Part shown: positions 4,012 through 64,000 of the stretch, piece after piece | Layout of the letters: each line of letters opens with the position of its first letter | Position numbering within the stretch: the first letter of the stretch is position 1 | Source of the DNA: a virus | Direction: 5' to 3' (one strand) | Virus record (IMG/VR): IMGVR_UViG_3300045988_067909 | Length of the DNA stretch: 64,000 bases | The notes under the pieces: generated by a model | What the model was told of the DNA's origin: nothing | The model's input: only the letters and a program-made list of their open reading frames with translations | Databases searched by the model: none | Program-made: the position numbers and the translations under genes

Positions 4012-4158
4012 ATGACTGATAAGAGCAAAAAAGATATGTTAGAAAATGGAAATATGAGCTTTATTGATTTCTTAAATCAAAGCACACCTATTGAGTTAAA
4101 TGAGTTTCTCAAATCTAAAGGGAAACGAAAAGTAAGATCAATGTTTATACGTCTATAA
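4012..4158 (+). CDS. Possible small ORF, 48 aa, Lys-rich
   Basis: ATG preceded by GTGAGGT 7 nt upstream. It lies between a terminator and the next gene. It is short and has no homology signal, so it is speculative. Confidence 0.2.
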   Translation: MTDKSKKDMLENGNMSFIDFLNQSTPIELNEFLKSKGKRKVRSMFIRL

Positions 4159-4202
4159 GACTTATAATATAAAACTAATTTTCTTTATGGAGGAAACAAA
4201 AC

Positions 4203-4733: not shown

Positions 4734-4937
4734 TACAGCTATAACAAAATAGTGAGTAGAAATATAATGCCATCGCCAAGAATACGAGCAATTATAATTA
4801 TACTCACATTGAATTTCTTCCTAGTTAGTAAGGTGCTTTCATACCTCTAGCCAACCTTACTATCTAGGTAGGATTCCTCTTATAGTTATTACATTTAACT
4901 CCAATTTTCTAACTTAACTGACTCCAAACACAAATAT

Positions 4938-4970
4938 CCCCATATAGGCACTGTCCTATATGGGGTATTT
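4938..4970 (+). terminator. Hairpin CCCCATATAGG-cactgt-CCTATATGGGG followed by TATTTG
   Basis: 11-bp perfect stem directly after the 4203-4733 gene. Member of the CCCATATAGG stem family. Confidence 0.5.
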
Positions 4971-5018
4971 GCCGTATGTCAAGAACACACCATTAATCCA
5001 AGAAAGGAGGAATTACAC

Positions 5019-44532: not shown

Positions 44533-44611
44533 TATATAGCCTCCTTTCACCAATTTACTACTATGTTTCAACAGTACTATAATCGTTGACTATAGGAGGT
44601 TAATAATAACT

Positions 44612-48068: not shown

Positions 48069-49445
48069 ATGTCTAAAGAGCAAGATGTAATAAAGTGGTG
48101 GCTATCCTATTCTGAAGAAGAAGCTAAACGTCGTAAAGAAGAATGGCTAGATGAGCACAATAAGTCTAGGCTATATAATGAAGTATTAGATAAGCTAACA
48201 GAGAAAGAGTTTAATACTGTATTACATAATACCATCAACGATATAAGATTCCATATGACTGATTCTTTTATGCATATATCTAAAGAAGAACGTGATACTT
48301 GGAATAAAGTCACATATGAATCTTTAACCAAGACAGTATCCGCAGAATCTGATGGTCTTATGTCTAAAGAAGATAAAAAGAAGTTAGATGATATACATGA
48401 AGGTGCTAATAACTATACTCACCCTAAATATAGACCAGTAACGTCTTATAAATTTAAGAAAGTTGATGAGTATGGTCACATCTATGGTTCATCTGAACCA
48501 GATGTATTACCAGTGACTGTAGACTCTGTAGATACATTGAATGGTAAACCTATTGAGTATTTTGCTAAGAATAATAACCAAATATTCAATAATATAACTG
48601 TGCCAGATGTAGATATCTCTACAGCTAAAGATAATACAGCTATTAATTATAAGACAATGAAGTCTTATGTATTAGATGGTGCTATACAAGTTACTAATAG
48701 TAATACAAATCTTGATACAAGAAAGCTTTGGTATAATACTAAAGATAATAAAGCATACTATTATCAAAGTAATATATGGAAACCATTCTCTATACCAGAT
48801 AAACCTGTGACATATAATGATAATGGGGTTATAGACAGCTCTTTATTACCATTAGTAGGATATCCTATAGGGTCTGTAGTTACTGTATATGGTAATACTA
48901 TCCCTCAAGGGTGTTTATTATTAGATGGATCCATTATATCTAAGGCAGACTACCCTAAATTATGGGATAGAGTATCACGATACTATAAGATAATATCTGA
49001 TAACGAGTATAACTCTTTACCATATGAGCATGCTACTACATACTTCTCACTTGTAGCATCAGATTCTGATAAATTTAGATTACCTAATTTATACAATCTA
49101 CATTTAAGACCTACGAGTGAAACTAATAAGCAAGGTGCACTACAACCTAACGCTAAACGTGCTAATATATATGGTACATTCCCAGTGACCCCATTTAATG
49201 GATATTCATTTCCGGAAGATATCGCACTCTATAATAAATATCCTATCGTTAAATGTGAACAAAGACCGATGACTACGTTTAGTTATGGGTCACCATATTA
49301 TAATGAATGGGGTTATATGGGTTATGAATATGCTAATAAGAATCGTGAATCATTAGACAATTACTATAAGCCTATAATAAATGAATCTAGTCAAGGTTTC
49401 TCTCCTAGATCTGTAACTGTTTTGTATTGTATTAAAGCTAAATAG
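48069..49445 (+). CDS. Tail fibre or receptor-binding protein paralog 3 (458 aa)
   Basis: HISKEERDTWN, GLMSKEDKKKLDDIHEGANNYTHPKY. C-terminus ...LYCIKAK. Confidence 0.65.
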   Translation: MSKEQDVIKWWLSYSEEEAKRRKEEWLDEHNKSRLYNEVLDKLTEKEFNTVLHNTINDIRFHMTDSFMHISKEERDTWNKVTYESLTKTVSAESDGLMSKEDKKKLDDIHEGANNYTHPKYRPVTSYKFKKVDEYGHIYGSSEPDVLPVTVDSVDTLNGKPIEYFAKNNNQIFNNITVPDVDISTAKDNTAINYKTMKSYVLDGAIQVTNSNTNLDTRKLWYNTKDNKAYYYQSNIWKPFSIPDKPVTYNDNGVIDSSLLPLVGYPIGSVVTVYGNTIPQGCLLLDGSIISKADYPKLWDRVSRYYKIISDNEYNSLPYEHATTYFSLVASDSDKFRLPNLYNLHLRPTSETNKQGALQPNAKRANIYGTFPVTPFNGYSFPEDIALYNKYPIVKCEQRPMTTFSYGSPYYNEWGYMGYEYANKNRESLDNYYKPIINESSQGFSPRSVTVLYCIKAK

Positions 49446-49454
49446 GAGGTAGCT

Positions 49455-51167
49455 ATGGGTGACTTTAATAATGAACTAGATAAAATTAATAAAACCGAAT
49501 TAGCTTCCCCGTTATCTAAGCTAATTAATGATGGCTATGCTCATATGTATAACCAAAATATGCATACATCTGAAAATGAACGTGATGTATGGAATAAAGC
49601 AGCTAATACTGTACTGTATAAAGCTAATATAGATTTGAATGGATTACTATCTAAAGAGGATAAAGAGAAACTAAATTCTATAGAGAGTGGTGCTAATAAC
49701 TATACTCACCCTAAATATATACAATCTAATGCTGGTACGTATATATCTACAGTATCAGATGATTCTGGTCATGTAATATATGGTAGTAATCCAACGTTCT
49801 TAGATTGTACTGTAGAGAATGCAACTAAGCTTAAAGATACAATCTTTGGTGAATTTGTACGTGCATCTAATCAAGTATTTGGGGATAATGTAACAATAAA
49901 TCCTAATAGCGATGTATATGATGGAACACCTGTTACATTTAAAAACTTTAATGATTATAGATTGGATAAAGCATTCAATAAATCTATAGCTATATCTACA
50001 GATGACGATTCATTATTTGCTCAAGATGGTACATCTAAGTCTATACATTATGGACTAAATAATGATATTGTAATATATAAACGTACTGTATCATCATTAA
50101 CAAGCTATTCATTGGTTAATTCAGCAAATACTATAAAACTAGTAAATGGTAAAATACCAATTAGATATATTCAAGATGATGGTGTGCCTATTGGTACTAT
50201 ACTATTCTGGTTAGGTTCTAATATACCTGATGGATATTTGCCTATGAATGGTATGGCTGTACAAAAATCATTAGTACCAGAGCTTATTGAATATGCTAAT
50301 ACTAATGGTCTATTAGAAAACTGGAATAATATGATGGAAAATAAGTACTACAATGCTAAGTTTGTACTAAAAGATGATAAGTTATATATGCCGACTTTTA
50401 ATAGAGCCATTACTGTATCAGCAAATAATAATAGAACGCTATCTGGTAATATTTCTGAATGGATTACTAAATATATCCGTGGTACATTCCAAGTAGCATC
50501 TGGTGCTATACAGTGGAACCCTGGTCCTAATGAGTTCAACTCTAAACAGGATACTGGTGAGATTCACGTAAAGAACGATGATGGTACAGATAAATTCTTA
50601 ATTCCAGATCCATCTACAGATATTGGGCAAACATATTTAACTATGTATGATAGTGGTGCTGTAGTATCAGCTGGTGATGATATGGCACCAGCTATGATGA
50701 CTGTAAATTATATTATCAAAGCATCATCTACAGGGCTAAAACTAAATTACGTTAAACAACTAAGTTACGATTATTATAATATAGATAATGGTAACCAGGT
50801 TAGATTTAGCGATGTATTAGACCATATCAAGTGTAATAATCATAGACCTATTGTTGATGTGACTATAAGTAATAGAGGTATAGCTTTTAGTAACTCAGCA
50901 GAGATTGATGGGGTCTATGATAAATTACGTTATGAACGTTTAAATCCATATAGACAGTTGATTATTCGAGGTTTGGGCAAATCAATCTACTATCCATATA
51001 GTGTAGATTTAAACGAAAATAACTTAATTACTATTGCAGAAAACAAGGTTCCTAATAGTACATTTACTATTCAGGTGTCAAAGGCCGATCCATATGATAG
51101 AATGGAAAAGTTTGACAGTTTAAAAACTAGACTTGCTAGTTATGGAGTAACGCTAGTAAAAGTATAA
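49455..51167 (+). CDS. Tail fibre or receptor-binding protein paralog 4 (570 aa)
   Basis: HTSENERDVWN, GLLSKEDKEKLNSIESGANNYTHPKY. ...NYIIKAS segment. Confidence 0.65.
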   Translation: MGDFNNELDKINKTELASPLSKLINDGYAHMYNQNMHTSENERDVWNKAANTVLYKANIDLNGLLSKEDKEKLNSIESGANNYTHPKYIQSNAGTYISTVSDDSGHVIYGSNPTFLDCTVENATKLKDTIFGEFVRASNQVFGDNVTINPNSDVYDGTPVTFKNFNDYRLDKAFNKSIAISTDDDSLFAQDGTSKSIHYGLNNDIVIYKRTVSSLTSYSLVNSANTIKLVNGKIPIRYIQDDGVPIGTILFWLGSNIPDGYLPMNGMAVQKSLVPELIEYANTNGLLENWNNMMENKYYNAKFVLKDDKLYMPTFNRAITVSANNNRTLSGNISEWITKYIRGTFQVASGAIQWNPGPNEFNSKQDTGEIHVKNDDGTDKFLIPDPSTDIGQTYLTMYDSGAVVSAGDDMAPAMMTVNYIIKASSTGLKLNYVKQLSYDYYNIDNGNQVRFSDVLDHIKCNNHRPIVDVTISNRGIAFSNSAEIDGVYDKLRYERLNPYRQLIIRGLGKSIYYPYSVDLNENNLITIAENKVPNSTFTIQVSKADPYDRMEKFDSLKTRLASYGVTLVKV

Positions 51168-52697: not shown

Positions 52698-54272
52698 ATG
52701 TCTAAACCCCAATTACTTAATAGACTGAAAAACAAAACTGATTTAGTTACCTCTGGTAATCTGTTACAGTATTCTGATACTACGGGTAGATTAGTAGAAG
52801 ATACTGGTTTAAATGCCCAGCAGATTAAAGCAGCAACGCTAAACAATGCCAATATCGTTAGTCACTTAGCTAATGATGGTATCCATGTAACTAGAGAAGA
52901 AAAGAAGTTTATTACACAAGATCATACAGATCTTAATAACCACTTAGTAGACGCATCCTCACATATTAGCCCGACAGATAGGGCTAATTGGGATGCCAAA
53001 GAAACCCCTGAAGGTGCACAAGCTAAAGTTAATATGGCTGCTGCATCTTTTAATAGACATATGGCTACCAAATCTATTCACGTTTCTAATAGTGATAGAT
53101 TGTCTTGGGATGATAAATATACTAAAGCTGAGATTGATAATAAGTTTGTACAGCTAGAATCTAATAATACTTGGAAAGAAGCTGTAGATACTTTTAGTGA
53201 GATTGATATTATGTATCCTTCTCCTCAGCGTGGTTGGACTGTATCTGTAAATGATACTAATATTACATTCCGTTATGATGGTGATAACTGGATTCCTATC
53301 TCTAGTAACGCTGTACCTATGGCTACAGCTGCAGTAGATGGTCTTATGTCTAAAGAAGACAAAGCTAAATTGGATACAGTAGAAATGGGTGCTAATAACT
53401 ATGTGCACCCTAATAATCCATCTACAAGACACGTATCTGATAAGGAGAAAGCATTCTGGTCAGCTAAGGCTGAAGACCGTAATGCTACTTATCAATATGC
53501 TGGTCTTATGTCTAAAGAAGATAAGTATAAATTAGACAATATTGAAACTGGTGCAACTAACTTTAGTATGCCTAGCAAATTAGACCCAACTATTATTGAA
53601 ACTGATAATGATCATTTATTCGTTACATTGGAAGAAAAGACTAATTGGTCTAATAAAGCAAGCAATAACTTAGTTACACCAAATGTAAATGGTATTATGT
53701 CTAAAGAAGATAAGATTAAACTTAACTCTGTAGATATGAATGCCAACTATTACATTCATCCACAAACGCATGACCCTTCTATTATCTTAGAAGATGCTAG
53801 TCATAGATTTGTAACTGATGAACAAATCTTAGCATGGAATAATAAATTAGATGGTTCTTTAGCTACAGCCACTTCTAATGGTGGTATGTCTAAAGAAGAT
53901 AAAGCTAAGTTAGATTCCATCGAAGAGGGTGCTAATAAATATAAGCTCCCAGCACAATTACCACCAACTATCATTGCTCAAGACCCTAATAATAGATTCT
54001 TTACTGATCAAGAAAGACAATCTCTTGCTGATAAGAAAGACTCTAAAGCAATCCTATTAGGTACAGCAGAGTTCAATGGTAGAACTGGTACTATTATCCC
54101 ACATAGCTTTGAGAATACATCATTCTCTGTAGCTATTACTCCAACAGCAAACCCTAATGGTTTGATTGGTGAAGTATGGGTTAAGAAAACTAATACAGCA
54201 TGTATCGTATACTGCTCTGGTGCAGGGGATGCTAAAATCCCATTCGATTATATGCTGATTTATTATAACTAA
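52698..54272 (+). CDS. Fibre-like protein made of 5-6 tandem copies of the family repeat unit (524 aa)
   Basis: Repeated H[IV][ST]xx[DE][RK]xxW[ND] and G[LIG]MSKEDKxKL[DN]x[IV][ED]xGA[NT]x[YF]xxP units. Confidence 0.65.
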   Translation: MSKPQLLNRLKNKTDLVTSGNLLQYSDTTGRLVEDTGLNAQQIKAATLNNANIVSHLANDGIHVTREEKKFITQDHTDLNNHLVDASSHISPTDRANWDAKETPEGAQAKVNMAAASFNRHMATKSIHVSNSDRLSWDDKYTKAEIDNKFVQLESNNTWKEAVDTFSEIDIMYPSPQRGWTVSVNDTNITFRYDGDNWIPISSNAVPMATAAVDGLMSKEDKAKLDTVEMGANNYVHPNNPSTRHVSDKEKAFWSAKAEDRNATYQYAGLMSKEDKYKLDNIETGATNFSMPSKLDPTIIETDNDHLFVTLEEKTNWSNKASNNLVTPNVNGIMSKEDKIKLNSVDMNANYYIHPQTHDPSIILEDASHRFVTDEQILAWNNKLDGSLATATSNGGMSKEDKAKLDSIEEGANKYKLPAQLPPTIIAQDPNNRFFTDQERQSLADKKDSKAILLGTAEFNGRTGTIIPHSFENTSFSVAITPTANPNGLIGEVWVKKTNTACIVYCSGAGDAKIPFDYMLIYYN

Positions 54273-54358
54273 TCAACAAAATAATATAGACTTGGGATGA
54301 ACACGGATCCTAAGAATATCTCTTTTTACTACAATATTACTAAAACTTTTTTAGATGA

Positions 54359-54383
54359 CCCATATAGGCATTGCCTATATGGG
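54359..54383 (+). terminator. Hairpin CCCATATAGGC-att-GCCTATATGGG
   Basis: 11-bp perfect stem after the 524-aa gene. A T-run lies upstream and a modest T-content downstream. Confidence 0.45.
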
Positions 54384-54485
54384 TTATCTACTGTCTCAAT
54401 ACAATGAAATATAATTTTGGATATATATTATAACTGTGTAGTAATTATAGTAAATTTGTTTTATAGTTAAGGAGGAACAATTACT

Positions 54486-55070
54486 ATGGAAAAGCAAAAA
54501 TTTAATTTAAGAGAACTAATTGGTCAATTCAGAACATTTGACTTTGCGTCTTATGATTTGAATTGCAGTTCCAAAAGAACAGCTGTTTACTCAGCTAAGA
54601 AAGGTAACACACTTGTTACTGTATGGACTAATGAGTATGAAACCGAAGATGGTTTCATTACACCATTAATCAAAGTTAAAGAAAAAGAGAAAGTAGATGT
54701 AACTACAGAAGTCTATAAGAGCACTACATTAGAAGATATCTTAGCGGTAGCCAATACTGGTGAATTTTGCATTAGTCAAGACACAGACCACAAGACACTA
54801 TTGAAAGTATCTTGCCGTGCATCTGCTAAAGTATTGGCAACGAACTCCAAAGGTAAACCTATGTTTAGATATACAGTTACTTTTGATACATTCGTTCCAG
54901 TTAATGGGTACTTTAACCCTAAAATCATCATTAGTAAAATTAAACCACGTGGACCAGTCTTCTTTAACTGGAAACATGATGACTTCTCTGATAAAATCAC
55001 ATTAGAGAATGCTGGTTTTGCATTTGTAGATGAAGCAGTCAATGCATTATTAGAATCCGAGGAATGGTAA
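54486..55070 (+). CDS. Hypothetical protein, 194 aa
   Basis: GGAGG ribosome-binding site. Confidence 0.65.
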   Translation: MEKQKFNLRELIGQFRTFDFASYDLNCSSKRTAVYSAKKGNTLVTVWTNEYETEDGFITPLIKVKEKEKVDVTTEVYKSTTLEDILAVANTGEFCISQDTDHKTLLKVSCRASAKVLATNSKGKPMFRYTVTFDTFVPVNGYFNPKIIISKIKPRGPVFFNWKHDDFSDKITLENAGFAFVDEAVNALLESEEW

Positions 55071-55071
55071 T

Positions 55072-55851
55072 ATGACAGTCAGTATAAAAGATAATAAAGC
55101 ATTTGTTAGACGTATAGCTGCATCCATAATACCACAAAAATTGGTAACTAGAAAAGAATCAGTATATGTAGGTGATGATGCACTAGTAGTTAACTCATCA
55201 ATATATATTAACAACAGCACGACTTCTGAATACAGCTCAACTGGTCCAAATATTATTTTGTCTAGTATGATGATAAGACCATTCGAATTATTAGAAATGA
55301 ATGGTGTTGCTGTAGATGATATTACATCATCTAAAATTCGCATCTATGATGATAAAAAATATGTGATTGCTGATGGACATAACACATCATCTTTTATAGT
55401 AGATGATGAATACACAGATACCTTGATATTTAGTGATTCATATAATGAGTTTATGAATATGATCCAGGTTAAAAATAAAAAAGTCGGATCTGTTATGAAT
55501 ACCCTATGTAGCCGTAAGTTACACCATTCTATTGAATATGAAGTAAATAGTAAACTATATTCTGCTACATTGAAATCAGAAGTCGAAATGGGTAAAGACT
55601 TAGACACCTATTCTATGTATATAGAAGATTCTACTAATGTATATACACATACTTCGGCTAAAGATATTATAGATGAATTATTAGCTTTACCATATGAGTT
55701 TCATGGTACATGTATAAACTATAGTGCTATAGATTGTACTAGAAGCTATGGTAAATTTGTAATTGATAAAATGCGATCTGAAGCCGAAGCCAATCAAATA
55801 ATATTATACGTAGATAATAATACAAACAATATTGCTAGACGTCTTATTTAA
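55072..55851 (+). CDS. Hypothetical protein, 259 aa
   Basis: Tightly packed with the neighbouring genes. ATG start. Confidence 0.6.
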   Translation: MTVSIKDNKAFVRRIAASIIPQKLVTRKESVYVGDDALVVNSSIYINNSTTSEYSSTGPNIILSSMMIRPFELLEMNGVAVDDITSSKIRIYDDKKYVIADGHNTSSFIVDDEYTDTLIFSDSYNEFMNMIQVKNKKVGSVMNTLCSRKLHHSIEYEVNSKLYSATLKSEVEMGKDLDTYSMYIEDSTNVYTHTSAKDIIDELLALPYEFHGTCINYSAIDCTRSYGKFVIDKMRSEAEANQIILYVDNNTNNIARRLI

Positions 55852-55865
55852 CCAGGAGGATAACC

Positions 55866-56513
55866 ATGTTTGATTTCAAAGAGAAATTGAGTGAAGTTAA
55901 AACTATGATTGTCAATAGTGTGAATATAGAATTCACACCAGACATCAAAACTATAAACTATCTTTATATCAATAAAGAGAATATGTCTGTCGAAGTCAGA
56001 ACAAAAGAATCTTGTCGAGAAGATTTAATGGATTACTATGATAAAGCAGAATATGAGTTTATAAATAAAGATGACTTAGCTGAAGATTATGTTAAAGGCC
56101 TAGGTGTAAATATCTTAGACGTAGTAGACATATCTAAACATGTAATTGCTACTGATAAAGATAAACCATTCACACTATATGATGCTTTAGATAATCTTAC
56201 TGCAGGGACTTTAGATATCGTATATGATAGAACTAATAAAGTCATTAAGTTTGGTCTTAGTCATTTTACCTGTATTACTGATGCTATTGGTGACTATGGT
56301 GTACAAATCAATACAGACTTACATTATAAGCTACAAGTATTTAGTGATCTAACTAATACTGAAATCTTCAGTAAGTTAGAAAACTATGGTGGTGACACAG
56401 CTTTTACTGTAATGCCATATAATGATGACGGTAATATCACATATAGATTTACTGTATATGATGTAGAAGATACTTTCGATATCATTAACGATATCGTGAA
56501 TTCACTTATTTAA
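55866..56513 (+). CDS. Hypothetical protein, 215 aa
   Basis: AGGAGGATAACCATG. Confidence 0.65.
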   Translation: MFDFKEKLSEVKTMIVNSVNIEFTPDIKTINYLYINKENMSVEVRTKESCREDLMDYYDKAEYEFINKDDLAEDYVKGLGVNILDVVDISKHVIATDKDKPFTLYDALDNLTAGTLDIVYDRTNKVIKFGLSHFTCITDAIGDYGVQINTDLHYKLQVFSDLTNTEIFSKLENYGGDTAFTVMPYNDDGNITYRFTVYDVEDTFDIINDIVNSLI

Positions 56514-56525
56514 GGAGAGACAGTA

Positions 56526-57272
56526 ATGGCTAGAAAAAGCAAGAATATTAAAGTGCAATCAATTGAAGAGATTGCAGATATTGAAACACCTAAAGAGGAA
56601 CCAACTACAGTAGTGGAATCTACAGAAGAAGAAACTGTAGAAGAAGCTACTACACAAGCACCTCCATTAGAAGATCTTATTAACGAAGAACCACGTGAAG
56701 TATTGACTTTCGACAATCTTTCTACTTATAACGATAAGTTTCTTCGTGATAAGATGATTGACTTATTAGACGCAACTAATGAAGTTGATTTCCGAATCAA
56801 TGACAATAATATACCTAATAAGTATTACATTACCAAAGGTAATGCCAGAGTATGCTTCTTCTCTAAAGATATAGAAGTGACTTCGTTAAGTGATACTAGA
56901 AAAGCTATTCTTGATGCTCTATCTAAAGTAGGTCACGATGATAAATTACTTGGTATCACTGTAGATACAGATCTTAGTTATAAATACTATGAAGATGAAT
57001 CTATGCTACCAGCTTTAAATATCACACGTACCATTAGTCTTGTAGATGCAGACAATAAATTTGTAACTATTGTATCTCAATACGTTATTGAGACAGCTAT
57101 AGCAGTAGCCCATATGTTTAAAGCATTATGTCGTGAACTATCTCAACGTAAGTTGAATGGTAAAGTTGTGGCTATTAACTATGCTAAAGATATTGGCTTA
57201 GTTGTATTGCATGATAAGTATATCGGTATTGAAGAAGTAATTAATACTTTGGATGATATGTATCGAGGCTAA
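56526..57272 (+). CDS. Hypothetical protein, 248 aa, acidic N-terminus
   Basis: AAGGAGAGACAGTAATG. Confidence 0.65.
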   Translation: MARKSKNIKVQSIEEIADIETPKEEPTTVVESTEEETVEEATTQAPPLEDLINEEPREVLTFDNLSTYNDKFLRDKMIDLLDATNEVDFRINDNNIPNKYYITKGNARVCFFSKDIEVTSLSDTRKAILDALSKVGHDDKLLGITVDTDLSYKYYEDESMLPALNITRTISLVDADNKFVTIVSQYVIETAIAVAHMFKALCRELSQRKLNGKVVAINYAKDIGLVVLHDKYIGIEEVINTLDDMYRG

Positions 57273-57273
57273 T

Positions 57274-57636
57274 ATGAAATCTGTGTTACATTTTGAGTTA
57301 GAGGGTGAGTTAGTCACCCTCACTCGATATGATGATTTCGGGAATACTATTGGTATAGAAGAAGCGATGTATCCCGATATCTGTATGGAAGAAGAGCTTA
57401 TCTGTTGTATGATGGAGATATTCGATACTGTAGTTAAAGGATATAATAGTGAGATAGTAAAGCTGACTACGATGTATGATGATAAATTTATTAATGTGGA
57501 AATCAATACTAGGAATGACACTATTACATTTGACAACTACTATGACGAATTTCAAATGGCTGATATAATGGATACAATCATAGAGTCTAATATGACTATG
57601 GATAACTTTAGATTTCTTCGAGGTGAAATGATATGA
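57274..57636 (+). CDS. Hypothetical protein, 120 aa
   Basis: ATG directly after the upstream stop, with GAGG 7 nt upstream. The track start at 57253 overlaps the upstream gene. Confidence 0.55.
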   Translation: MKSVLHFELEGELVTLTRYDDFGNTIGIEEAMYPDICMEEELICCMMEIFDTVVKGYNSEIVKLTTMYDDKFINVEINTRNDTITFDNYYDEFQMADIMDTIIESNMTMDNFRFLRGEMI

Positions 57637-58139
57637 CGGATAGAGAAACATATGATGGTATATACAAGACCGTAGCAGATATAGTATTCGAGAAAGGATT
57701 AGCTAGAACACAATCCACTTCAGTATACTTAGATGGTAATGGTCATGTAGGTATTACATATTCCACAGGAGCTATGCATATTACTGATAAAGAATATTGC
57801 TTAGGCTCTAATATGGAAATTAATGTATTTGATACAGATCTTAATAAAGATACAGTAGAATCATTAAAAGATATGCTATTGATTTTACACTCAGATGCAT
57901 ATGAAAGATATGGTGATGTAGAAGTCAAAACTAATACATTATGTGCATTACCTGATACTATTGAGTTTGATGAAATATATGAAACCAATAATCACTATGC
58001 ACCGACAGCATATCTATTTTATGACGATATAAAAATCTATAGTATAGATTTATCTGGGTTTGTAACACCAGAAGATATCCTCAAGATTAAAGATAGTCTA
58101 ATTGACTATTTCAAAGGTTTTGAATATGAGTTCTATTAA
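57633..58139 (+). CDS. Hypothetical protein, 168 aa
   Basis: ATGA overlap with the upstream gene. Confidence 0.6.
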   Translation: MTDRETYDGIYKTVADIVFEKGLARTQSTSVYLDGNGHVGITYSTGAMHITDKEYCLGSNMEINVFDTDLNKDTVESLKDMLLILHSDAYERYGDVEVKTNTLCALPDTIEFDEIYETNNHYAPTAYLFYDDIKIYSIDLSGFVTPEDILKIKDSLIDYFKGFEYEFY

Positions 58140-58193
58140 AATTTACTAACATATTTGTATCTTAATCATATACAAATAGGAGTAAATAGAACG

Positions 58194-58313
58194 ATGGATA
58201 TTTTTATAATAGGTTTATCGTCTACAGCCTTAGTATCCCTACTGGTATATGCTAGTATTCACTTTGATTGTAGATATAAACATGATTTTTACGAATCTAT
58301 ATATAAGAAATAA
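58194..58313 (+). CDS. Possible 39-aa single-transmembrane peptide (MDIFIIGLSSTALVSLLVYASIHFDCRYKHDFYESIYKK)
   Basis: ATG 11 nt after AGGAG. Hydrophobic helix. A terminator follows immediately. It is short and therefore speculative. Confidence 0.25.
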   Translation: MDIFIIGLSSTALVSLLVYASIHFDCRYKHDFYESIYKK

Positions 58314-58320
58314 GTAAAAT

Positions 58321-58357
58321 CCAGGTATAGGAAATTCCTATACCTGGTATATTTTTT
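58321..58357 (+). terminator. Hairpin CCAGGTATAGG-aaatt-CCTATACCTGG followed by TATATTTTTT
   Basis: 11-bp stem with a T-run. Confidence 0.65.
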
Positions 58358-58368
58358 AGGAGGCAATT

Positions 58369-59010
58369 ATGTTAGATACAGATACATTAATAAAAGGATA
58401 TAGTTTTGAAAAGTTTACTGAAAAGATTAGAAACCTAACCAACTCTGAAGTTGGTAATTATAAGAATAAGCAAGTTTTTATTACTGAACGTGTTGATGAC
58501 TTCAACCCAGAAGTACTAATTACTAGAGCTATTCTTTTAGATAAAACTGAAAAGGATAAAGAATATGATGCATCAATAACTGTACGCCGAAACTCTAAGA
58601 ACTTCTGTCCTAAGATGGATACTATTACCGCATTTCGTGTACTATATGAAACTGATTGGGCTGATAATGGTAGATTTAATGTTATAGATTGCAAGTTTAG
58701 TGTAGCATTATCATATAATGCTGATAATAAAAGCTTGACATATACTCATCTATATAGTAAATACAGAAAAAATAGACTGATTCATACTGTATGCTATAGT
58801 GTAACAGAACGATTAGACGAAGCTGCCAATTTATACATAAGCAGCGTATTCAATTCAGCTAAGAAGTATGATGGTATACATAATACAGCATACAAAGTTT
58901 TATATACGGATTTAGATACTATTCATATTCTACCACCAGCACCCATATTCGACTATGGTATATCTGAAGCTTTAGATTTCTTATGTGATACTATAGTTTT
59001 AAATAATTAG
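58369..59010 (+). CDS. Hypothetical protein, 213 aa
   Basis: AGGAGG ribosome-binding site. Confidence 0.65.
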   Translation: MLDTDTLIKGYSFEKFTEKIRNLTNSEVGNYKNKQVFITERVDDFNPEVLITRAILLDKTEKDKEYDASITVRRNSKNFCPKMDTITAFRVLYETDWADNGRFNVIDCKFSVALSYNADNKSLTYTHLYSKYRKNRLIHTVCYSVTERLDEAANLYISSVFNSAKKYDGIHNTAYKVLYTDLDTIHILPPAPIFDYGISEALDFLCDTIVLNN

Positions 59011-59021
59011 TAATAAGAAAT

Positions 59022-59060
59022 CCCAGTATAGTCATTGACTATACTGGGTATTATTTTTTT
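59022..59060 (+). terminator. Hairpin CCCAGTATAGTCA-t-TGACTATACTGGG followed by TATTATTTTTTTT
   Basis: 13-bp stem with a strong T-run. Confidence 0.75.
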
Positions 59061-59084
59061 TGTAAAAGTTAATCTTTATAGTTA

Positions 59085-59191
59085 TATACTATAACTGTGT
59101 ATGGTAGATACAGCTATTCGTAGTAGCTGTATCTAAATATAGCCATACACTTGTAGACTATAAGTCTACTTGCCGAAAGGAGGTGACTCCT
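59085..59191 (+). promoter_or_regulatory. Conserved cassette leader, copy B (TTGTAA -35-like, TATATACT -10-like, nested inverted repeats, AAAGGAGGTGA)
   Basis: Near-identical to copies A and C apart from the loop of the large inverted repeat (tattcgtagta). Confidence 0.6.
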
Positions 59192-59398
59192 ATGGCGAAT
59201 CCGGGATGCGTAGGTAACTACGCTAACCAATTAGCGGAACGTTCAGCCAATGTTGGCTGGATGATCCGCTATTGCCAAGATATAATCTATGATTATGTCT
59301 ATGGTAATAACGGTGTAAGTTTAGCCGAAGCTAAAAAAGCTGAAGCTTACTTGCTCCAACACGGTATTAGTCTCACTGTTGATCTAGACAAAGTCTAA
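59192..59398 (+). CDS. Small paralogous protein B (68 aa; MANPGCVGNYANQLAERSAN...), unknown function
   Basis: Same N-terminal 25 aa as A. The remainder aligns at about 35% identity. Confidence 0.7.
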   Translation: MANPGCVGNYANQLAERSANVGWMIRYCQDIIYDYVYGNNGVSLAEAKKAEAYLLQHGISLTVDLDKV

Positions 59399-59412
59399 TA
59401 CCAATTAATATA

Positions 59413-59455
59413 CATGGGTAGGTGTTCACTCATCTACCCATGTATTATTTTTTTT
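59413..59455 (+). terminator. Hairpin CATGGGTAG-loop-CTACCCATG followed by TATTATTTTTTTT
   Basis: 9-bp stem with a T-run 15 nt after the stop. Confidence 0.7.
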
Positions 59456-59477
59456 GTAAGTAAACTGTTTTACAATT

Positions 59478-59584
59478 ACATACTATAACTGTGTATGGTA
59501 GATACAGCTGGCAGGCTATAGCTGTATCTAAATATAACCATACACTTGTAGACATAGTCTACATGCCGAAAGGAGGTGACTCCT
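59478..59584 (+). promoter_or_regulatory. Conserved cassette leader, copy C
   Basis: Same architecture as A and B. The loop of the large inverted repeat is tggcaggctata and the small palindrome is GTAGAC-ata-GTCTAC. Confidence 0.6.
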
Positions 59585-59785
59585 ATGGCAGGATGTGTTA
59601 TGAATTACCATAATACATTAGCAGAAAGATCTACCAATTTAGATTGGCAGATCAGAACTGCTATAAGCCTAGTGATTGATCGTTACTTTGATATTAACAA
59701 TGTAACGCATCATGAAGCTATTAAGGCTTATCGATTCCTTAAAGCACAAGGAATCAAATTACCTATAACTGAAAATCACTTATAG
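59585..59785 (+). CDS. Small paralogous protein C (66 aa; MAGCVMNYHNTLAER...NVTHHEAIKAYRFLKAQGIKLPITENHL)
   Basis: About 65% identical to protein A. Confidence 0.7.
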   Translation: MAGCVMNYHNTLAERSTNLDWQIRTAISLVIDRYFDINNVTHHEAIKAYRFLKAQGIKLPITENHL

Positions 59786-59806
59786 GTAATAATAAAAATA
59801 ATACTT

Positions 59807-59846
59807 GGTGTGGTAATTTACAAACCCACACCTTGTATTATTTTTT
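59807..59846 (+). terminator. Hairpin GGTGTGG-N12-CCACACC followed by TTGTATTATTTTTTG
   Basis: 7-bp GC-rich stem with a T-run. Confidence 0.5.
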
Positions 59847-59860
59847 GTGTTATATGTGTA

Positions 59861-61084
59861 TTATTTTAAACCAAATGCTTCCATAGGATCCATCTCAACC
59901 ATTCTAACTTGGCTATCATGGAATGCTTTCATGGCAACGTTCTTAAGTTTAGATGCTATTTGTGGAGCAGCAGCACCAATATTCTTTACTCCTAGACGAT
60001 AGAAGATATTACCAGCACACGCATTACAAACACCATTCTCAGCCTCACATAAAGAAGCAAATCTAAACTGTACTGTTTTACCAATATATTGATTCATATT
60101 CTCAGAAGTCAACTCTACCAGTTTATTTCCTTCTTTCATAAAGCAATAGATGTATTCTTTTATATTGTCTTTATTTAGAGTGATTGTAATAGTACGTTTA
60201 GTACCACAGTCACTACCCTTGTCTAATGTCTGAATGTGTTGACATGCTGGCAGTAATAGTTTTTCCCAATAGCCACCAACTTCTGTACGGCTAGCACGAG
60301 AGTAAGGACCTTCGGCTAGAGAGTTAGCAAAGTCAGCATAGTCTTCTTTAGATATACCTGTCATATAGTTAGACATAATGATATTATAACCCTTAGTCGG
60401 ATCTGGGTTTTTAGTAATACCACGAACAACAAACATGTTTTTGAAATGGTTACTCATATTAGATTTAGCACCACTATTATAAGTATCCATAGCTGGGTCG
60501 TCTTTAAGAATCTCTTCAGCTAAGTCTAATAGTTCTTCTTGAATCTTCAATACTATTTTAGGATCTTTAGCATCTAACTCTTTACGATATTTCTTAATAA
60601 GTTCTTCTTTAGCCTTATTGATTTTTGTCGTAATAGTCAATAGTTTCATACTATAACTAGTAGACAATATATTTACATAAGGCATGAACTTTTGACCTTT
60701 CATAACAAAGTCTTGCATAACTTTAAGAGTCTTTCTATTCTCTAGAATAGCATATGAGATCTCTTGCATAATATTACCAACCATCTTCTTGGTAATTGGT
60801 TTATTGATATACCCAAACATATCAAACAAGTCTTTCTCGATGAATACTCTATTGAATACCCATAACCCTACAGTTGTAACAAAAGCATTCTTATTCTTTT
60901 TTCCTTCTGGTCCATATGAGCCAGCTGGAATAGTAACTAAATCATATGTATTGAATCTACGTTTACCGTTAAATTCACCAAACATGCCAATTACTGTAGA
61001 AGTCTTAGCACCCATATCTTGATCTATAGATAGGATATAATCTATATCTTTAGCATTAGTAATTCTATTAGATGTACGTTTCAT
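59861..61084 (-). CDS. Hypothetical protein, 407 aa, with a C-terminal Cys cluster (C-x5-C-x2-C)
   Basis: AAGGAGGTAATACGATATG ribosome-binding site on the minus strand. Confidence 0.65.
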   Translation of the reverse strand: MKRTSNRITNAKDIDYILSIDQDMGAKTSTVIGMFGEFNGKRRFNTYDLVTIPAGSYGPEGKKNKNAFVTTVGLWVFNRVFIEKDLFDMFGYINKPITKKMVGNIMQEISYAILENRKTLKVMQDFVMKGQKFMPYVNILSTSYSMKLLTITTKINKAKEELIKKYRKELDAKDPKIVLKIQEELLDLAEEILKDDPAMDTYNSGAKSNMSNHFKNMFVVRGITKNPDPTKGYNIIMSNYMTGISKEDYADFANSLAEGPYSRASRTEVGGYWEKLLLPACQHIQTLDKGSDCGTKRTITITLNKDNIKEYIYCFMKEGNKLVELTSENMNQYIGKTVQFRFASLCEAENGVCNACAGNIFYRLGVKNIGAAAPQIASKLKNVAMKAFHDSQVRMVEMDPMEAFGLK

Positions 61085-61169
61085 ATCGTATTACCTCCTT
61101 ACGGTTTACTATTATGTAAAGTCAATACTTTATGTCACCAAAAACATCTATGTAATTCTAACTATTCTA

Positions 61170-61187
61170 CCCCAAAATGGGGTTTTT
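61170..61187 (+). promoter_or_regulatory. Short GC hairpin CCCCA-aaa-TGGGG plus TTTTT, immediately upstream of the 61203 ribosome-binding site (possible attenuator or terminator)
   Basis: Seen directly. Located 16 nt before GGAGGAG. Confidence 0.3.
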
Positions 61188-61202
61188 ACGGAGGAGAAAT
61201 AA

Positions 61203-61820
61203 ATGGACTCTAATTTTAATAAAGAAAATAAAGTCTCCTATCAAGAGCTGGCCCCTAGTTTACAGGCGATGCTTGATGGTAAGGCTAGTGTTACAGTTCT
61301 TAATAATCATATTAATGACAATGCACGACATATCACTAACGATGAACGTGCTAAATGGAATGCTACATTACAAGACGCTAATACATGGGCTAAGAACTAT
61401 GTAAATGGTCTTTTAGGTGACTTTGGTGGTCAAGGTGTAACTTTGATGGATGTAGTCAAATCTAAATTAGATAAGACTGAATTCGAAAACTTTAAACGTA
61501 CATTAGCACGTATTGCTTTTACTGGTTCGTATAATGATCTTATTGATAAACCATCTGGTATCTCTTTCTCTGATACTGCAAATAAAGCTTTGAATGCTGA
61601 TCGTGCAACTTTAGCAGATAGAGCTACTGTAGCTGACCGTGCAACTAATGCTGACTTAGCGGAAAATGCTAAACGTGTTGGTGGTATTCGTGTAACTATT
61701 GATGGTACTGCTCCAGCTAACCCTGAAAATAATAAAGAAATCTGGTTCAATACCACAAACTTGACAGTTTACTTCTACGTAAATAATCAATGGAGAATGA
61801 CTCGTTGCGCTGTTGCATAA
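61203..61820 (+). CDS. Small tail-fibre-like protein, 205 aa, with the family N-terminal motif (HITNDERAKWN) and ADRAT tandem repeats
   Basis: GGAGGAGAAATAAATG. NADRATLADRATVADRATNADLAENA. C-terminus ...RMTRCAVA overlaps the radical-SAM start. Confidence 0.65.
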   Translation: MDSNFNKENKVSYQELAPSLQAMLDGKASVTVLNNHINDNARHITNDERAKWNATLQDANTWAKNYVNGLLGDFGGQGVTLMDVVKSKLDKTEFENFKRTLARIAFTGSYNDLIDKPSGISFSDTANKALNADRATLADRATVADRATNADLAENAKRVGGIRVTIDGTAPANPENNKEIWFNTTNLTVYFYVNNQWRMTRCAVA

Positions 61821-63010
61821 GTCCTTTAGAGGAGACTTTCTACAATCTAACTAACGTGCAACTAATGATGTCAACAGGGTGTAATCTTAGTTGCAGGTAC
61901 TGCTATCAGGATGATAAGAAGAATAAGAATATGTCTAAAGAAGTTATGGAATCTTTTATAGACTTCTTATGTGATACAAATCCTGATGTCCCAGTTTTAA
62001 TAGATTTCTTTGGTGGTGAACCATTAGTAAACTGGCCGATAATGAAATATGGTTTAGAACTAATGGATGATTTAGGTTTAACTGAAAAGAAACTATATTT
62101 TATGGTATCCACTAATGGTACACTTATTACTGATGAGGTAGCTGAATACTTCAGAAAGTATAATGTCCATATCAATATATCTATAGATGGTACACCAGAG
62201 AAACACAATTACGAACGTAATAATTCTTACGATAAAACTATAGAGGGATTACATAAGTTATATGACCATGGTCTTTGTAGAGACATTACTGCTAGACTTA
62301 CATTCCCAAACAATTATTTTGGTAGTATAGAAGAGCATGTAAGAAGTGTATTAAACTTAGGTATCCCTGAAGTTACATTTGCAGCTATCTTAGCTGGTGG
62401 TATAACTGATGAAGAGTTAGCCACTTATGAGGAATCTATGTATAGAACTGCTATACTTATTCTTAAGTATGTAGAATATGGCTTAGCAGTTATTCCTAAG
62501 TATATGAGAAACTTCATAATGATGGAACACATAAATCAAGATTTCAAACCTAGACAACCATGTCATTTTAAAACCAATAGAGGTATTGTAGTAGATACTG
62601 ATGGGGTATTATTCGGATGCTCTATTGTCCCAAATTCAGATTTTAAAGAATATTCTTCTAAAGTGTATTCAGATACCGTAATTGGTAATGTCAAATACGG
62701 TATAGCTTATAATCGGAATATTGGGGACAAATACCCTTGTACTACGGCAAATGCTAAAAATGACTGTATCAATTGTGAAGCCAAGAGTATGTGTTTACCA
62801 TGTGCTATGGAAAATATGCTATCATCAACAAGAGACTATCATTTAGTTGCTGATGATAAATGTAAATTAATTAAGGCTAGATATAGAGTTGCATTACGTA
62901 TTCATAATTGGATACTACGAAATAAATTCGGAAGTGTTGCAATGTCTAGGCTAAAAGAAAATCATCTTCTTGGGGAAGATAAGTATAGCATAAGTTCATT
63001 AATAATATAG
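61790..63010 (+). CDS. Radical SAM enzyme with a C-terminal SPASM domain
   Basis: CNLSCRYC (CxxxCxxC) near the N-terminus. FFGGEPL. CHFKTNRGIVVDTDGVLFGC (Cx13Gx4C) and CINCEAKSMCLPC (Cx2Cx5Cx2C) SPASM motifs. Start uncertain: ATG at 61790 overlaps the upstream gene, and alternative ATGATG lies at 61865. Confidence 0.7.
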   Translation: MENDSLRCCISPLEETFYNLTNVQLMMSTGCNLSCRYCYQDDKKNKNMSKEVMESFIDFLCDTNPDVPVLIDFFGGEPLVNWPIMKYGLELMDDLGLTEKKLYFMVSTNGTLITDEVAEYFRKYNVHINISIDGTPEKHNYERNNSYDKTIEGLHKLYDHGLCRDITARLTFPNNYFGSIEEHVRSVLNLGIPEVTFAAILAGGITDEELATYEESMYRTAILILKYVEYGLAVIPKYMRNFIMMEHINQDFKPRQPCHFKTNRGIVVDTDGVLFGCSIVPNSDFKEYSSKVYSDTVIGNVKYGIAYNRNIGDKYPCTTANAKNDCINCEAKSMCLPCAMENMLSSTRDYHLVADDKCKLIKARYRVALRIHNWILRNKFGSVAMSRLKENHLLGEDKYSISSLII

Positions 63011-63044
63011 AGTCAGTAACTTTAAGGGGAATTTTAGGAAAGAA

Positions 63045-64000
63045 ATGTTTTTAGAGTTTAAAGAAATAGGGAATGATGTAAGAGAAGTAGTATTCTATCT
63101 TACTAATGATAATAATATTGATTGTGACTATCTACCACCTAAGGGTAGACAATATATGTCTACCAGGGTGATAGATGCTATGATAGAGAAGATTACTAAG
63201 ATCTTTAAGGATTATAGACGTGTATATACTATCACATTCAAAGGTGGAGAACCTTTGATGTGTTGGGATAAGATTGTCTATATCATAGATAAACTAAAAG
63301 CTAATAATGTAATATGTAGATACAAACTATATACGAATCTGACTTTGATGACATTAGCTAAAGCTAAAGTTATTAAAGCTAATGCTATAGATGTAGTAGG
63401 TTATCTTGATGGTGAAGTAGAGCATAATAGTAAACATCGTACTGGGTATAAAGAAGCTATACGTGGACTAACTTGTTTACGTGAACTTAATATACTTAAG
63501 ACACATGTAACTATCCATATGACATTAATGGAAGATACTATTAAATACTTTGAAGATAACTTTGATTTCATTAGTAAGCTTGGAGTAAAGAGTATCTTAT
63601 TTGAACCAGCAGAATCTATAGATATAACTGGTAAATTTAAGACCTCTCTAAAGAAAGCTACTAAGTATGCTTATGAGCAATACTTCAAGTTTACTAAGAA
63701 TAGATTTGATGCATTATATCTTATATCATATTTAGATTATATAGTTCCAGATTATAAAGATACATCTGCTGATAGTAACTTCTTTACATCTGGACAACTA
63801 TATGTATCGCCATATGGTAAGTTATATGCTAATAGATTGGCATTGGTTAATGGTATTAGGCATATTGGTAATGTATACAGTAACCAATTAGTATTTCCTG
63901 ATACTATTGATATCCATAGCCACCCAAAATGTCGTGGATGTGTAGCTAAGAATGTATGTCAATCCTGTAGTGACATTGCTACATTCGATTCTAAATATCC
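63045..64000 (+). CDS. Degenerate radical-SAM / SPASM paralog lacking the CxxxCxxC triad (partial; continues past the window end)
   Basis: TFKGGEPLMCW, YTNLTLMT and GYLDG align with the preceding enzyme's FFGGEPLVNW, STNGTLIT and ISIDG. C-terminal CRGCVAKNVCQSC (Cx2Cx5Cx2C). There is only one Cys in the N-terminal 70 aa. Confidence 0.55.
   Translation, partial: MFLEFKEIGNDVREVVFYLTNDNNIDCDYLPPKGRQYMSTRVIDAMIEKITKIFKDYRRVYTITFKGGEPLMCWDKIVYIIDKLKANNVICRYKLYTNLTLMTLAKAKVIKANAIDVVGYLDGEVEHNSKHRTGYKEAIRGLTCLRELNILKTHVTIHMTLMEDTIKYFEDNFDFISKLGVKSILFEPAESIDITGKFKTSLKKATKYAYEQYFKFTKNRFDALYLISYLDYIVPDYKDTSADSNFFTSGQLYVSPYGKLYANRLALVNGIRHIGNVYSNQLVFPDTIDIHSHPKCRGCVAKNVCQSCSDIATFDSKY

Follow-up and report, generated by a model that had tools for sequence, protein, structure and literature searches.

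Radical SAM/SPASM enzymes encoded by an AR9/PBS1-like jumbo phage and their probable targets, large phage proteins with cysteine-glutamine repeats

Introduction

Which protein might a phage modify with a radical S-adenosylmethionine (rSAM) enzyme whose gene lies directly beside that of a fibre-like protein? The question is raised by the end of a 64,000-nucleotide stretch of viral DNA (IMG/VR record IMGVR_UViG_3300045988_067909; the whole stretch is called the window here), where both the map of open reading frames (ORFs) and direct reading place three genes close together on the plus strand: g1, for a fibre-like protein of 205 amino acids (aa); g2, for an rSAM enzyme with a SPASM domain (rSAM1); and g3, for a homolog without the full set of SAM-cluster cysteines (pseudo-rSAM2). 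A reading of the sequence by itself (the original prediction) had taken the 205-aa protein as a candidate substrate of a two-enzyme arrangement. As an overall explanation, we now think it probable that the locus belongs to a ranthipeptide-like rSAM/SPASM maturation system that has been re-targeted to large phage proteins, encoded farther along the same operon.

The operon beyond the window

A long operon, with all its genes in one orientation, begins with the three window genes. A metagenomic contig (L001) is 100% identical to window positions 53001-64000 and continues past the window end; a window coordinate equals the L001 coordinate plus 51202, and the IMG/VR contig L007 supplies the remainder. 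The operon had been suspected of being incomplete, and so it was: it runs for about 13 kb as far as rSAM5, the last of the rSAM genes, and for about 19 kb if two following fibre-like genes are included, and the window holds its first 2.8 kb. It carries not two but five rSAM paralogs, three of them beyond the window, together with a set of cysteine-glutamine (CQ) repeat proteins; a small precursor-like ORF, which had been suggested as something to look for downstream, was not found in the module. The genes are, in order:

Position 1: g1, 205 aa, fibre-like
Position 2: rSAM1, 401 aa, intact cluster site
Position 3: pseudo-rSAM2, 440 aa, SAM-cluster cysteines lost
Position 4: rSAM3, 450 aa, intact cluster site
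Position 5: glycine-rich protein, 572 aa, C-terminal end CKTSCQVSCQASCQIACQNCQYDTCHNQNCGGWS
Position 6: helical protein, 391 aa, no Cys
Position 7: two paralogs, 400 and 374 aa, with internal CVVGCQVNCQSTCQLTCQ and a C-terminal domain rich in Y, P and W that ends CxxC[D/E]NR
Position 8: rSAM4, 346 aa
Position 9: helical protein, 416 aa, a distant paralog of the 391-aa protein (E 9e-7)
Position 10: rSAM5, 392 aa
Position 11: fibre-like protein, 486 aa, and a large protein, 1266 aa

The enzymes rSAM3, rSAM4 and rSAM5 all have the CxxxCxxC motif and score above the 29.5-bit threshold of the Pfam Radical_SAM model, and the ratio of nonsynonymous to synonymous substitution rates (dN/dS) is 0.03-0.11 for every module gene (7-20 related contigs). 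Among the remaining products, the 572-aa protein has weak Gly_rich_2 and PHROG tail matches. With the 391-aa helical protein, a word-index search returned only near-identical copies and an exhaustive search returned 24 representatives, a profile of which had no match in Pfam or among PDB sequences. The module contains no small Cys-rich ORF, protease, transporter or recognition element (RRE) of the kind used by ribosomally synthesised and post-translationally modified peptide (RiPP) systems. It thus falls outside the general definition of a RiPP cluster, with its short leader-core precursor, RRE and leader removal or export; judging from its gene content, the module would work like a RiPP maturation system, but on proteins.

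CQ-repeat proteins and their linkage to radical SAM genes

Cys-rich proteins in the module number just three, namely those with CQ repeats (572, 400 and 374 aa), all encoded beyond the window end. Their motif, C-x3-C-Q-x2-C-Q-x2-C-Q-x2-C-Q, is invariant in 12 aligned proteins from different phages that are elsewhere only about 20% identical, and most of these continue with x-C-x4-C-H-N-Q-N-C-G-G. The Gln after each Cys is as invariant in this alignment as the Cys itself, and in the tandem-repeat search the DNA of the CQ region had only a weak 12-nucleotide (nt) periodicity.

To survey the distribution of the motif, IMG/VR was scanned with a back-translated DNA pattern for four CQxx units, and the 120 loci returned were classified. 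All 22 loci with a genuine CQ tail, on proteins of 200-730 aa with up to about 24 repeats, carry between one and five rSAM ORFs. About 70 of the 120 are simple 12-nt DNA repeats with no rSAM ORF, and the remaining loci have neither an in-frame motif nor an rSAM gene. Three loci (L032, L106 and L119) have long CQ/CE-repeat proteins and no rSAM ORF in the stretch available, which is a mere 3.4 kb in L032 and has the protein at its edge in L106 and L119. The genuine motif ending CHNQNCGG occurs in about nine phage lineages of the scan. A stricter pattern, CQxC(x4)CHNQNCG, found one contig in 185,579 bacterial species genomes, and this proved to be a 5 kb fragment of the window phage; with so strict a pattern, the motif is practically restricted to phages.

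In these loci an ortholog of rSAM3, which we call the A-type enzyme, nearly always lies immediately upstream of the CQ-tail gene, and in the closer lineages orthologs of rSAM4, rSAM5 and both helical proteins follow. On this arrangement rSAM3 and the CQ-tail protein are the conserved pair of putative enzyme and putative target. Two loci illustrate how far the repeats can extend: a 730-aa protein (L072, 2-2191) has more than 17 C[Q/E]xx units, and in another (L109, 652-1872), close to four rSAM ORFs, an array of about 24 CQxx units ends CHNQNCGGWS. There is also a second type of candidate target (L001, 17376-19719; L044, 2513-3718, minus strand), in which a short internal CQ motif is followed by a domain of about 140 aa rich in Y, P, W and D that ends C-x-x-C-[D/E]-N-[R/K]. 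The window phage has two copies of this type, the 400- and 374-aa proteins, and L146 has one; the copy in L044 adjoins an extra A-like rSAM gene. A homolog search with the 400-aa CQ protein returned members of the same lineage only.

Comparison of the CQ tail with known rSAM targets points to the SCIFF peptides: in hhalign, a profile of the tail matched the SCIFF core with 89% probability (E 2e-6). The motif is nevertheless sub-threshold against all the models of Cys-rich targets modified by rSAM enzymes, namely PF13165 (SCIFF), TIGR03973 and TIGR04114/04117/04118; the motif segment scores 15.8, 16.0 and 17.8 bits against the last three, whose cut-offs are 20, 50 and 35.

This resemblance could also be taken to mean that the product is itself a diffusible SCIFF-like ranthipeptide, the C-terminal 35 or so residues being modified and then cleaved from the large carrier to mimic or jam host SCIFF signalling or to hit competitors. 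SCIFF is near-universal in Clostridia and linked to quorum sensing (PMC8326336), and the likely hosts of the phage are anaerobic Firmicutes (see below). However, the module encodes neither a protease nor an exporter, the carriers are large (200-730 aa), diverse and under purifying selection, the motif of the 400- and 374-aa proteins is internal and followed by a conserved 140-aa domain, and the RRE by which SCIFF maturases bind a leader is absent from the enzymes. We consider such a secreted product highly improbable.

Family affinity of the enzymes

If the CQ proteins are targets, what kind of enzyme acts on them? All five paralogs score best against the PapB model NF047865 (rSAM1 165, pseudo-rSAM2 69, rSAM3 199, rSAM4 60 and rSAM5 87 bits), and the next families are the SCIFF maturase, QhpD and the CXXX-repeat-target maturase. 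The scores are far from those of curated members. The best PapB score, 199 bits, compares with a cut-off of 340; for the SCIFF maturase ScfB/CteB (TIGR03974) the values are 104-129 against 425, with no RRE and no adjacent precursor of about 45 aa; for TIGR04115 they are 36-111 against 350; for QhpD (TIGR03906), 115-125, or 115-153 for the A-type enzymes, against 453; and for anSME (TIGR03942), 64-85 against 349. The 19 kb module has no gene for a QhpC-like or a sulfatase (C/S-x-P-x-R) substrate. Roles in nucleoside or cofactor metabolism were also considered and rejected, the relevant models (QueE, NrdG, MoaA and viperin) giving 20-40 bits versus 165-199 for the peptide maturases, a five- to ten-fold difference. 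The enzymes almost certainly are maturases of the protein/peptide branch of the rSAM/SPASM superfamily, and on this point the original prediction has held up well.

The solved structure closest to rSAM1 by sequence is CteB (5WGG). Since the alignment begins at CteB residue 101, the N-terminal RRE is missing, and the same is true of all five enzymes; recognition must therefore differ from that of the leader-peptide RiPP systems. The closest matches of rSAM1 in the phage database are 'Bacteriophage sp.' records from human faeces, of which the one inspected, MT835472.1, is an ordinary SCIFF/ScfB locus, probably clostridial DNA and no phage analog.

A proposed maturation system and its difficulties

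From gene content, family affinity, conservation, synteny and co-occurrence we infer the enzyme-substrate pairing, the chemistry and the location of the products, each with its own degree of confidence. The rSAM/SPASM enzymes would modify the phage CQ proteins post-translationally, and it is likely that these proteins are their substrates. The reaction would create ranthionine-type thioether links from the repeat Cys to a side-chain carbon of the neighbouring invariant Gln, and thereby small rings arranged as a ladder. Among known ranthipeptides, the N-x-x-C, C-x3-D/E and SCIFF motifs are similar to these Q-x-x-C units (PMC8326336), and by our reckoning thioether formation falls just on the probable side. 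Proteins of what is probably the tail-fibre apparatus would acquire a stapled knob that withstands reduction and proteases. We regard a tail-fibre location as probable because of the N-terminal module of g1 (below), the weak tail matches of the 572-aa protein and the flanking 486-aa fibre-like protein; as to whether the modified proteins end up in the virion, we are evenly divided. The paralogs may split the labour, making different rings or acting on different targets, and recognition might be provided by the pair of helical proteins, by a conserved helix that directly precedes the repeat, or by the extension at the C-terminus of A-type enzymes.

One could argue instead that the Cys repeats are metal or Fe-S ladders of a trimeric fibre and that the rSAM enzymes do some other job, such as formylglycine formation, epimerisation or C-C cross-linking, or act on another molecule. 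The fibres of T4, with their HxH metal sites, offer an analog. In a helix, the regular C-x3-C spacing would align the thiols along one face, the structure of anSME closely matches the rSAM1 model, and all of the family scores are below cut-off. Yet a pure metal ladder leaves the Gln, as invariant as the Cys, unexplained; the thioether-forming families outscore anSME two- to three-fold; and the strict adjacency of rSAM and CQ-tail genes argues for an enzyme-substrate relation. A metal ladder therefore seems very unlikely to us.

Several other points weigh against the proposed thioether system. Composition can raise the apparent similarity of short Cys-rich segments. None of the rSAM scores reaches its curated family cut-off and the reaction type is thus an extrapolation; moreover, anSME nearly equals CteB as a structural match, so that the reaction may instead be conversion of Cys to formylglycine or some other chemistry. 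On the side of the targets, neither the 400- and 374-aa proteins nor the helical pair match anything in PHROG, Pfam or the PDB, and the AlphaFold2 model of the 400-aa protein was unusable, with a mean predicted local distance difference test (pLDDT) score of 34. In the distant CQ-tail lineages the flanking genes are mostly without known function, one being a DNA ligase, and a PHROG scan gave them no structural annotation. Both the reaction and the presence of the CQ proteins in the virion are deduced from sequence, and our suggestions for what rSAM1 and pseudo-rSAM2 do are guesses.

The three genes at the window end

The features of the window end, with those of the adjoining divergent gene, are as follows:

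59861-61084, minus strand: RNA polymerase beta' fragment gene, divergent from the g1 operon
61170..61196, plus strand: operon leader, read directly; hairpin CCCCAAAATGGGG, then TTTTT, then the g1 Shine-Dalgarno sequence GGAGGAG
61203..61820, plus strand: g1, 205 aa; HITNDERAKWN adaptor module, three ADRAT units, C-terminal GGIRVTI...NKEIWFNT...W domain, RCAVA end
61805..63010, plus strand: g2 (rSAM1), 401 aa from TTG 61805, or 406 aa from the in-frame ATG 61790
61880..61903, plus strand: rSAM1 CNLSCRYC, the CxxxCxxC ligands of the SAM-cleaving [4Fe-4S] cluster; invariant in the rSAM alignment
62561..62863, plus strand: rSAM1 SPASM region, C-x13-G-x4-C, PC, C-x2-C-x5-C-x2-C and downstream DDKC; predicted ligands of two auxiliary clusters
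63045..64000, plus strand: g3 (pseudo-rSAM2), first 318 of 440 codons; the gene ends at the window-equivalent position 64367 and is complete on L001
63111..63134, plus strand: pseudo-rSAM2 degenerate cluster site NNIDCDYL, aligned to CteB CNLRCKYC
63930..63968, plus strand: pseudo-rSAM2 second-auxiliary-cluster motif CRGCVAKNVCQSC, from direct reading and alignment

The three genes had been described as translationally coupled. Of these, g1 and g2 overlap by 16 nt (31 nt with the ATG start); the TTG start, nine bases after GGAG, is the one used by gene callers on related contigs. The genes g2 and g3 do not overlap; they share the same orientation and lie close together, with a 34-nt gap containing a Shine-Dalgarno sequence.

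Direct reading and the alignment to CteB agree that rSAM1 is the canonical enzyme with complete SPASM cysteines that had been described. With 79.2 bits against the Radical_SAM (PF04055) cut-off of 29.5, it is a member of the superfamily. A SPASM domain is defined here by C-x9-15-G-x4-C ... C-x2-C-x5-C-x2-3-C ... C, that is, seven to eight cysteines for two auxiliary clusters, and rSAM1 has the full set by direct reading. The Pfam SPASM model gave no rSAM1 match at E <= 0.1; the region is spanned by the full-length alignments to the PapB and CteB models and by the predicted structure. The AlphaFold2 model (pLDDT 82) has CteB as its top fold match (TM-score 0.69), with anSME second.

In pseudo-rSAM2, two of the three SAM-cluster cysteines are lost, as are the first auxiliary-cluster C-x13-G-x4-C cysteines, and it keeps GGEP, the CxxCx5CxxC set of CRGCVAKNVCQSC and a downstream Cys. 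The earlier description of a paralog that keeps partial-SPASM cysteines and has lost those of the SAM cluster holds, one of the three being left in the NNIDCDYL site. Lacking CxxxCxxC and with a PF04055 score of 29.2 bits, just under the 29.5-bit cut-off, the protein is an rSAM homolog by fold and sequence that, to judge from these residues, cannot bind the SAM cluster canonically. It is 22% identical to rSAM1 (E 7e-9) and closer to rSAM3 than to any other paralog (24% identity, E 7e-18); pseudo-rSAM2 and rSAM3 also have a C-terminal extension in common. The HxsB, HxsC and pseudo-SAM models appear among its family matches, all of them far below cut-off. That g3 is a decaying pseudogene is ruled out by its dN/dS of 0.07; in the same comparison (13-20 related contigs) the values were 0.07 for rSAM1 and 0.10 for g1, and the adjoining RNA polymerase gene had 0.09.

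Homologs of rSAM1 at 77% identity or more occur only in the same phage, on contigs of about 255-266 kb, the next best being 29% identical, and no orthologs of rSAM1 or pseudo-rSAM2 were found outside the window lineage. By sequence comparison the two look like lineage-specific additions, divergent tandem duplicates of an A-type enzyme. Most likely the two would work as a pair, one catalytic and one not, on the additional targets of this lineage, that is, the 400- and 374-aa proteins and/or the C-terminal Cys of g1; as the non-catalytic partner, pseudo-rSAM2 may still bind one auxiliary cluster.

The fibre-like protein encoded by g1 has the features originally described, namely an HxTxxERxxWN module, three ADRAT repeats and an RCAVA end. 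The ADRAT units are NADRATLADRATVADRATNAD; they contain no Cys, and the tandem-repeat search found no tandem repeat in their DNA. The protein matches PHROG tail families weakly (E 3e-7 to 1e-3) and no Pfam model. Its N-terminal module, ELxPxL...HxxDxxxHITxEERxxWN, is common to five other fibre-like proteins of the window (42487-44571 on the minus strand; 45705-46736, 46747-48054, 48069-49445 and 49455-51167 on the plus strand), several of which match PHROG tail-fibre families, in keeping with the fibre family noted earlier. Within the six, the module (ELSPxL...HxxDxxxHITxEERxxWN) is often followed by NGLMSKEDKxKLDxIExxANxYxHP, and the C-terminal parts differ; the set looks like interchangeable fibres on a common attachment adaptor.

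Orthologs of g1 with 47-52% identity lie directly upstream of the first rSAM gene in six other loci (L022, L026, L044, L056, L095 and L100), and weaker relatives exist in further lineages: across several of them, the rSAM module has g1 as its conserved opening gene. Considering this position, might g1 itself be the substrate? In such a scheme rSAM1, with the inactive pseudo-rSAM2, would join the Cys at the C-terminus (R-C-A/S-V-A-COOH) to a carbon close by, such as the C-alpha of the last residue, and so make a small terminal macrocycle. Besides the overlap of g1 and rSAM1, there is a co-occurrence: the R-C-[A/S]-V-A end is present in 21/21 loci with both rSAM1 and pseudo-rSAM2, the Cys constant although its neighbour varies (A/S), and the Cys is absent from 8/8 loci without both. 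Moreover, when a peptide ends in Gly or D-Ala, PapB can bond the C-alpha of that residue to an internal Cys (PMC12373016). However, the same enzyme did not process peptides ending in L-Ala (PMC12373016); the co-occurrence represents a single evolutionary event; and the last g1 codons, which overlap the rSAM1 start, are constrained in another way, so that the new C-terminus may be the scar of an insertion or duplication junction. This Cys, the only one in g1, is conserved within the window lineage alone. Outside it the orthologs end W-Q-M-T-G-A-A-L-R and have no conserved Cys, and since they adjoin rSAM genes all the same, the g1-rSAM linkage is independent of the C-terminal Cys. The 205-aa protein consequently gives way to the CQ proteins as the favoured substrate. 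We think its cyclisation unlikely, although it is compatible with a system directed at CQ proteins, in which g1 is a possible secondary substrate in a lineage-specific side reaction.

The phage and the upstream region

The source is an AR9/PBS1-like jumbo phage of about 260 kb, often encountered in human metagenomes. Its DNA is AT-rich (33% GC), and its RNA polymerase beta' gene is split, the fragment beside the operon being 30-36% identical to the counterparts in AR9, PBS1 and Staphylococcus jumbo phages. This phage group is known for its uracil-containing DNA. An unchanged g1 protein occurs on many metagenomic contigs of about 260 kb; g1 was indexed in 190 blocks of the assembly collection, many of them contigs of about 255-268 kb from human metagenomes and Human Microbiome Project samples. 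Neither a megablast search with the region nor tblastn with g1 matched a deposited phage, and these searches found no sequenced isolate of the source phage. The hosts are likely to be anaerobic Firmicutes, because of the AR9-like RNA polymerase and a fragment binned with a Solobacterium genome. That 5 kb fragment of the window phage (L148; CALISH010000122.1, from the metagenome-assembled genome 'uncultured Solobacterium sp.') has its rSAM3 ORF fused at the 5' side to unrelated bacterial-looking sequence, which suggests an assembly chimera and makes it a weak host hint.

The operon leader lies between g1 and the divergently oriented RNA polymerase fragment gene. A scan for sigma-70 promoters and terminators was uninformative, with counts about 1.3 (promoter-like) and 1.7 (terminator-like) standard deviations above the shuffled expectation, and within the part scanned there was no convincing plus-strand terminator that would split the operon. 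Two further features of the window may be mentioned here. Upstream lie two tandem paralogous small genes (59183-59398 and 59576-59785), for proteins of 71 and 69 aa that both start MTPMA; their upstream/5' segments of about 150 bp (approximately 59048-59196 and 59442-59589) are about 87% identical, and the number of such genes varies among related contigs. A giant structural protein is presumably encoded by the single 3196-codon ORF at 5019-14609, where the window is higher in GC.

Comparison with known systems

In its enzymology the phage module is closest to the SCIFF (CteA-CteB) and PapA-PapB systems of Clostridia and Paenibacillus, with which it shares the best model, sequence and fold matches, the full SPASM set and, in the target, a CQxSCQxxC-type repeat. 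It differs in scoring far below the cut-offs, in lacking an RRE and in its targets, which are proteins of 200-730 aa, sometimes with an internal motif, versus peptides of about 45 aa. Moreover, the phage loci have three to five paralogs and two helical proteins, and the system is phage-encoded and was not found in the 185,579 bacterial genomes scanned.

Precedents for RRE-less rSAM/SPASM enzymes that act on proteins are QhpD, which makes Cys-Asp/Glu thioethers in the gamma subunit of quinohemoprotein amine dehydrogenase, and anSME. Among models, QhpD ranks second or third for the A-type enzymes, and among fold matches anSME ranks second, but the phage module has no QhpC-like or sulfatase-like substrate and no CxPxR, and the acceptor would be Gln rather than Asp or Glu. 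Haft's CXXX-repeat target families (TIGR04114-04118), with their maturase TIGR04115, likewise pair repeats that have a Cys at every fourth position with an rSAM/SPASM enzyme, and our literature searches found no experimental study of them; the phage motif differs in being sub-threshold, in its invariant Gln and CHNQNCGG end, and in residing on large phage proteins. As for the rSAM1/pseudo-rSAM2 pair, HxsB/HxsC, the TIGR04347 pseudo-SAM/SPASM proteins and thuricin TrnC/TrnD are also adjacent paralogous rSAM/SPASM genes, some with one member that lacks the catalytic cysteines; unlike the Hxs systems, however, the module has no His-Xaa-Ser target, and the pairing of its two proteins is a predicted one.

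Full-text literature searches yielded no description of a phage system of rSAM enzymes and Cys-repeat proteins, in agreement with the earlier impression that there is no described counterpart, and the rSAM/CQ-tail system seems to be undescribed. Other large phages nevertheless have sets of clustered rSAM/SPASM paralogs, with 20-26% identity to the window enzymes: the Campylobacter phages CP220/CPt10 with 11-12 rSAM genes, the Ralstonia phages RP12 and RP31, and Salmonella phage SPN3US. The CP220 and RP12 papers treat these multiple genes as metabolic or unknown and propose no target (PMC2853527, PMC5468394). If our proposal is true, it would provide a function for the clustered rSAM genes noted in large phages since 2010 (CP220, SPN3US and the Erwinia and Ralstonia jumbo phages). 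Ranthipeptide-type chemistry would be widened from small secreted peptides to large, probably virion, proteins, with RRE-free recognition and possibly Gln as an acceptor. Redox-proof cross-links in receptor-binding proteins would then affect particle stability in the anaerobic, protease-rich gut and mouth, and would tie the phages to hosts able to provide low-potential electrons as well as Fe-S clusters; as a compact tag, (CQxx)n could, with its enzymes, also serve for protein stapling.

Two more phages deserve mention as observations in their own right. Campylobacter phage CP21 (L025, 17834-19268) encodes CP21_165 and CP21_166, which have CxxC-type repeats with 12-13 Cys per 30 residues, lie 7 kb from the rSAM/SPASM gene CP21_151 and may be another class of target. 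Phage Phass-1 (L150, OQ749652, 'code 15 clade'), a stop-reassigning gut phage with suppressor tRNAs, has an rSAM/SPASM homolog (8130-9155) with 25% identity to rSAM3; translation with the standard table revealed no CxxxC repeat within 8 kb of it.

In its most ambitious form, the proposal would have large phages stapling their tail-fibre virion proteins with Cys-Gln thioether ladders, by RRE-independent recognition and with a new acceptor residue, the duplicated active/inactive pair in addition cyclising the C-terminal Cys of g1, and the same principle accounting for the rSAM genes of SPN3US-like and Erwinia jumbo phages. We put this forward tentatively, as more doubtful than not.

Analogous arrangements are found in two such phages. 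In Erwinia phage Wellington (L024, 7218-7947), a fibre-like NNADLLNG motif is followed in both gp183 and gp182 by about 20 tandem C-x3 repeats, with the rSAM genes gp179 and gp178 1-2 kb downstream and the tail-fibre gene gp186 upstream; gp182 passes the TIGR04114 cut-off (24.8 bits versus 20), and gp178 scores best against TIGR04115. In SPN3US (L149, JN641803), three ORFs (4091-4489, 4503-4904 and 4908-5126, the first of them unannotated) combine a fibre-like N-terminus with long CXXX repeats, lie upstream of 'radical SAM superfamily protein 2/1' (gp164/gp163) and adjoin the virion structural protein gp167. The window phage is very common in human metagenomes and SPN3US is a genetically tractable analog, and the proposal is thus testable. 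Both SPN3US and Wellington, in proteins annotated only as hypothetical, have an NNADL motif fused to about 20 CXXX repeats, with two rSAM genes 1-2 kb downstream and a virion gene just upstream.

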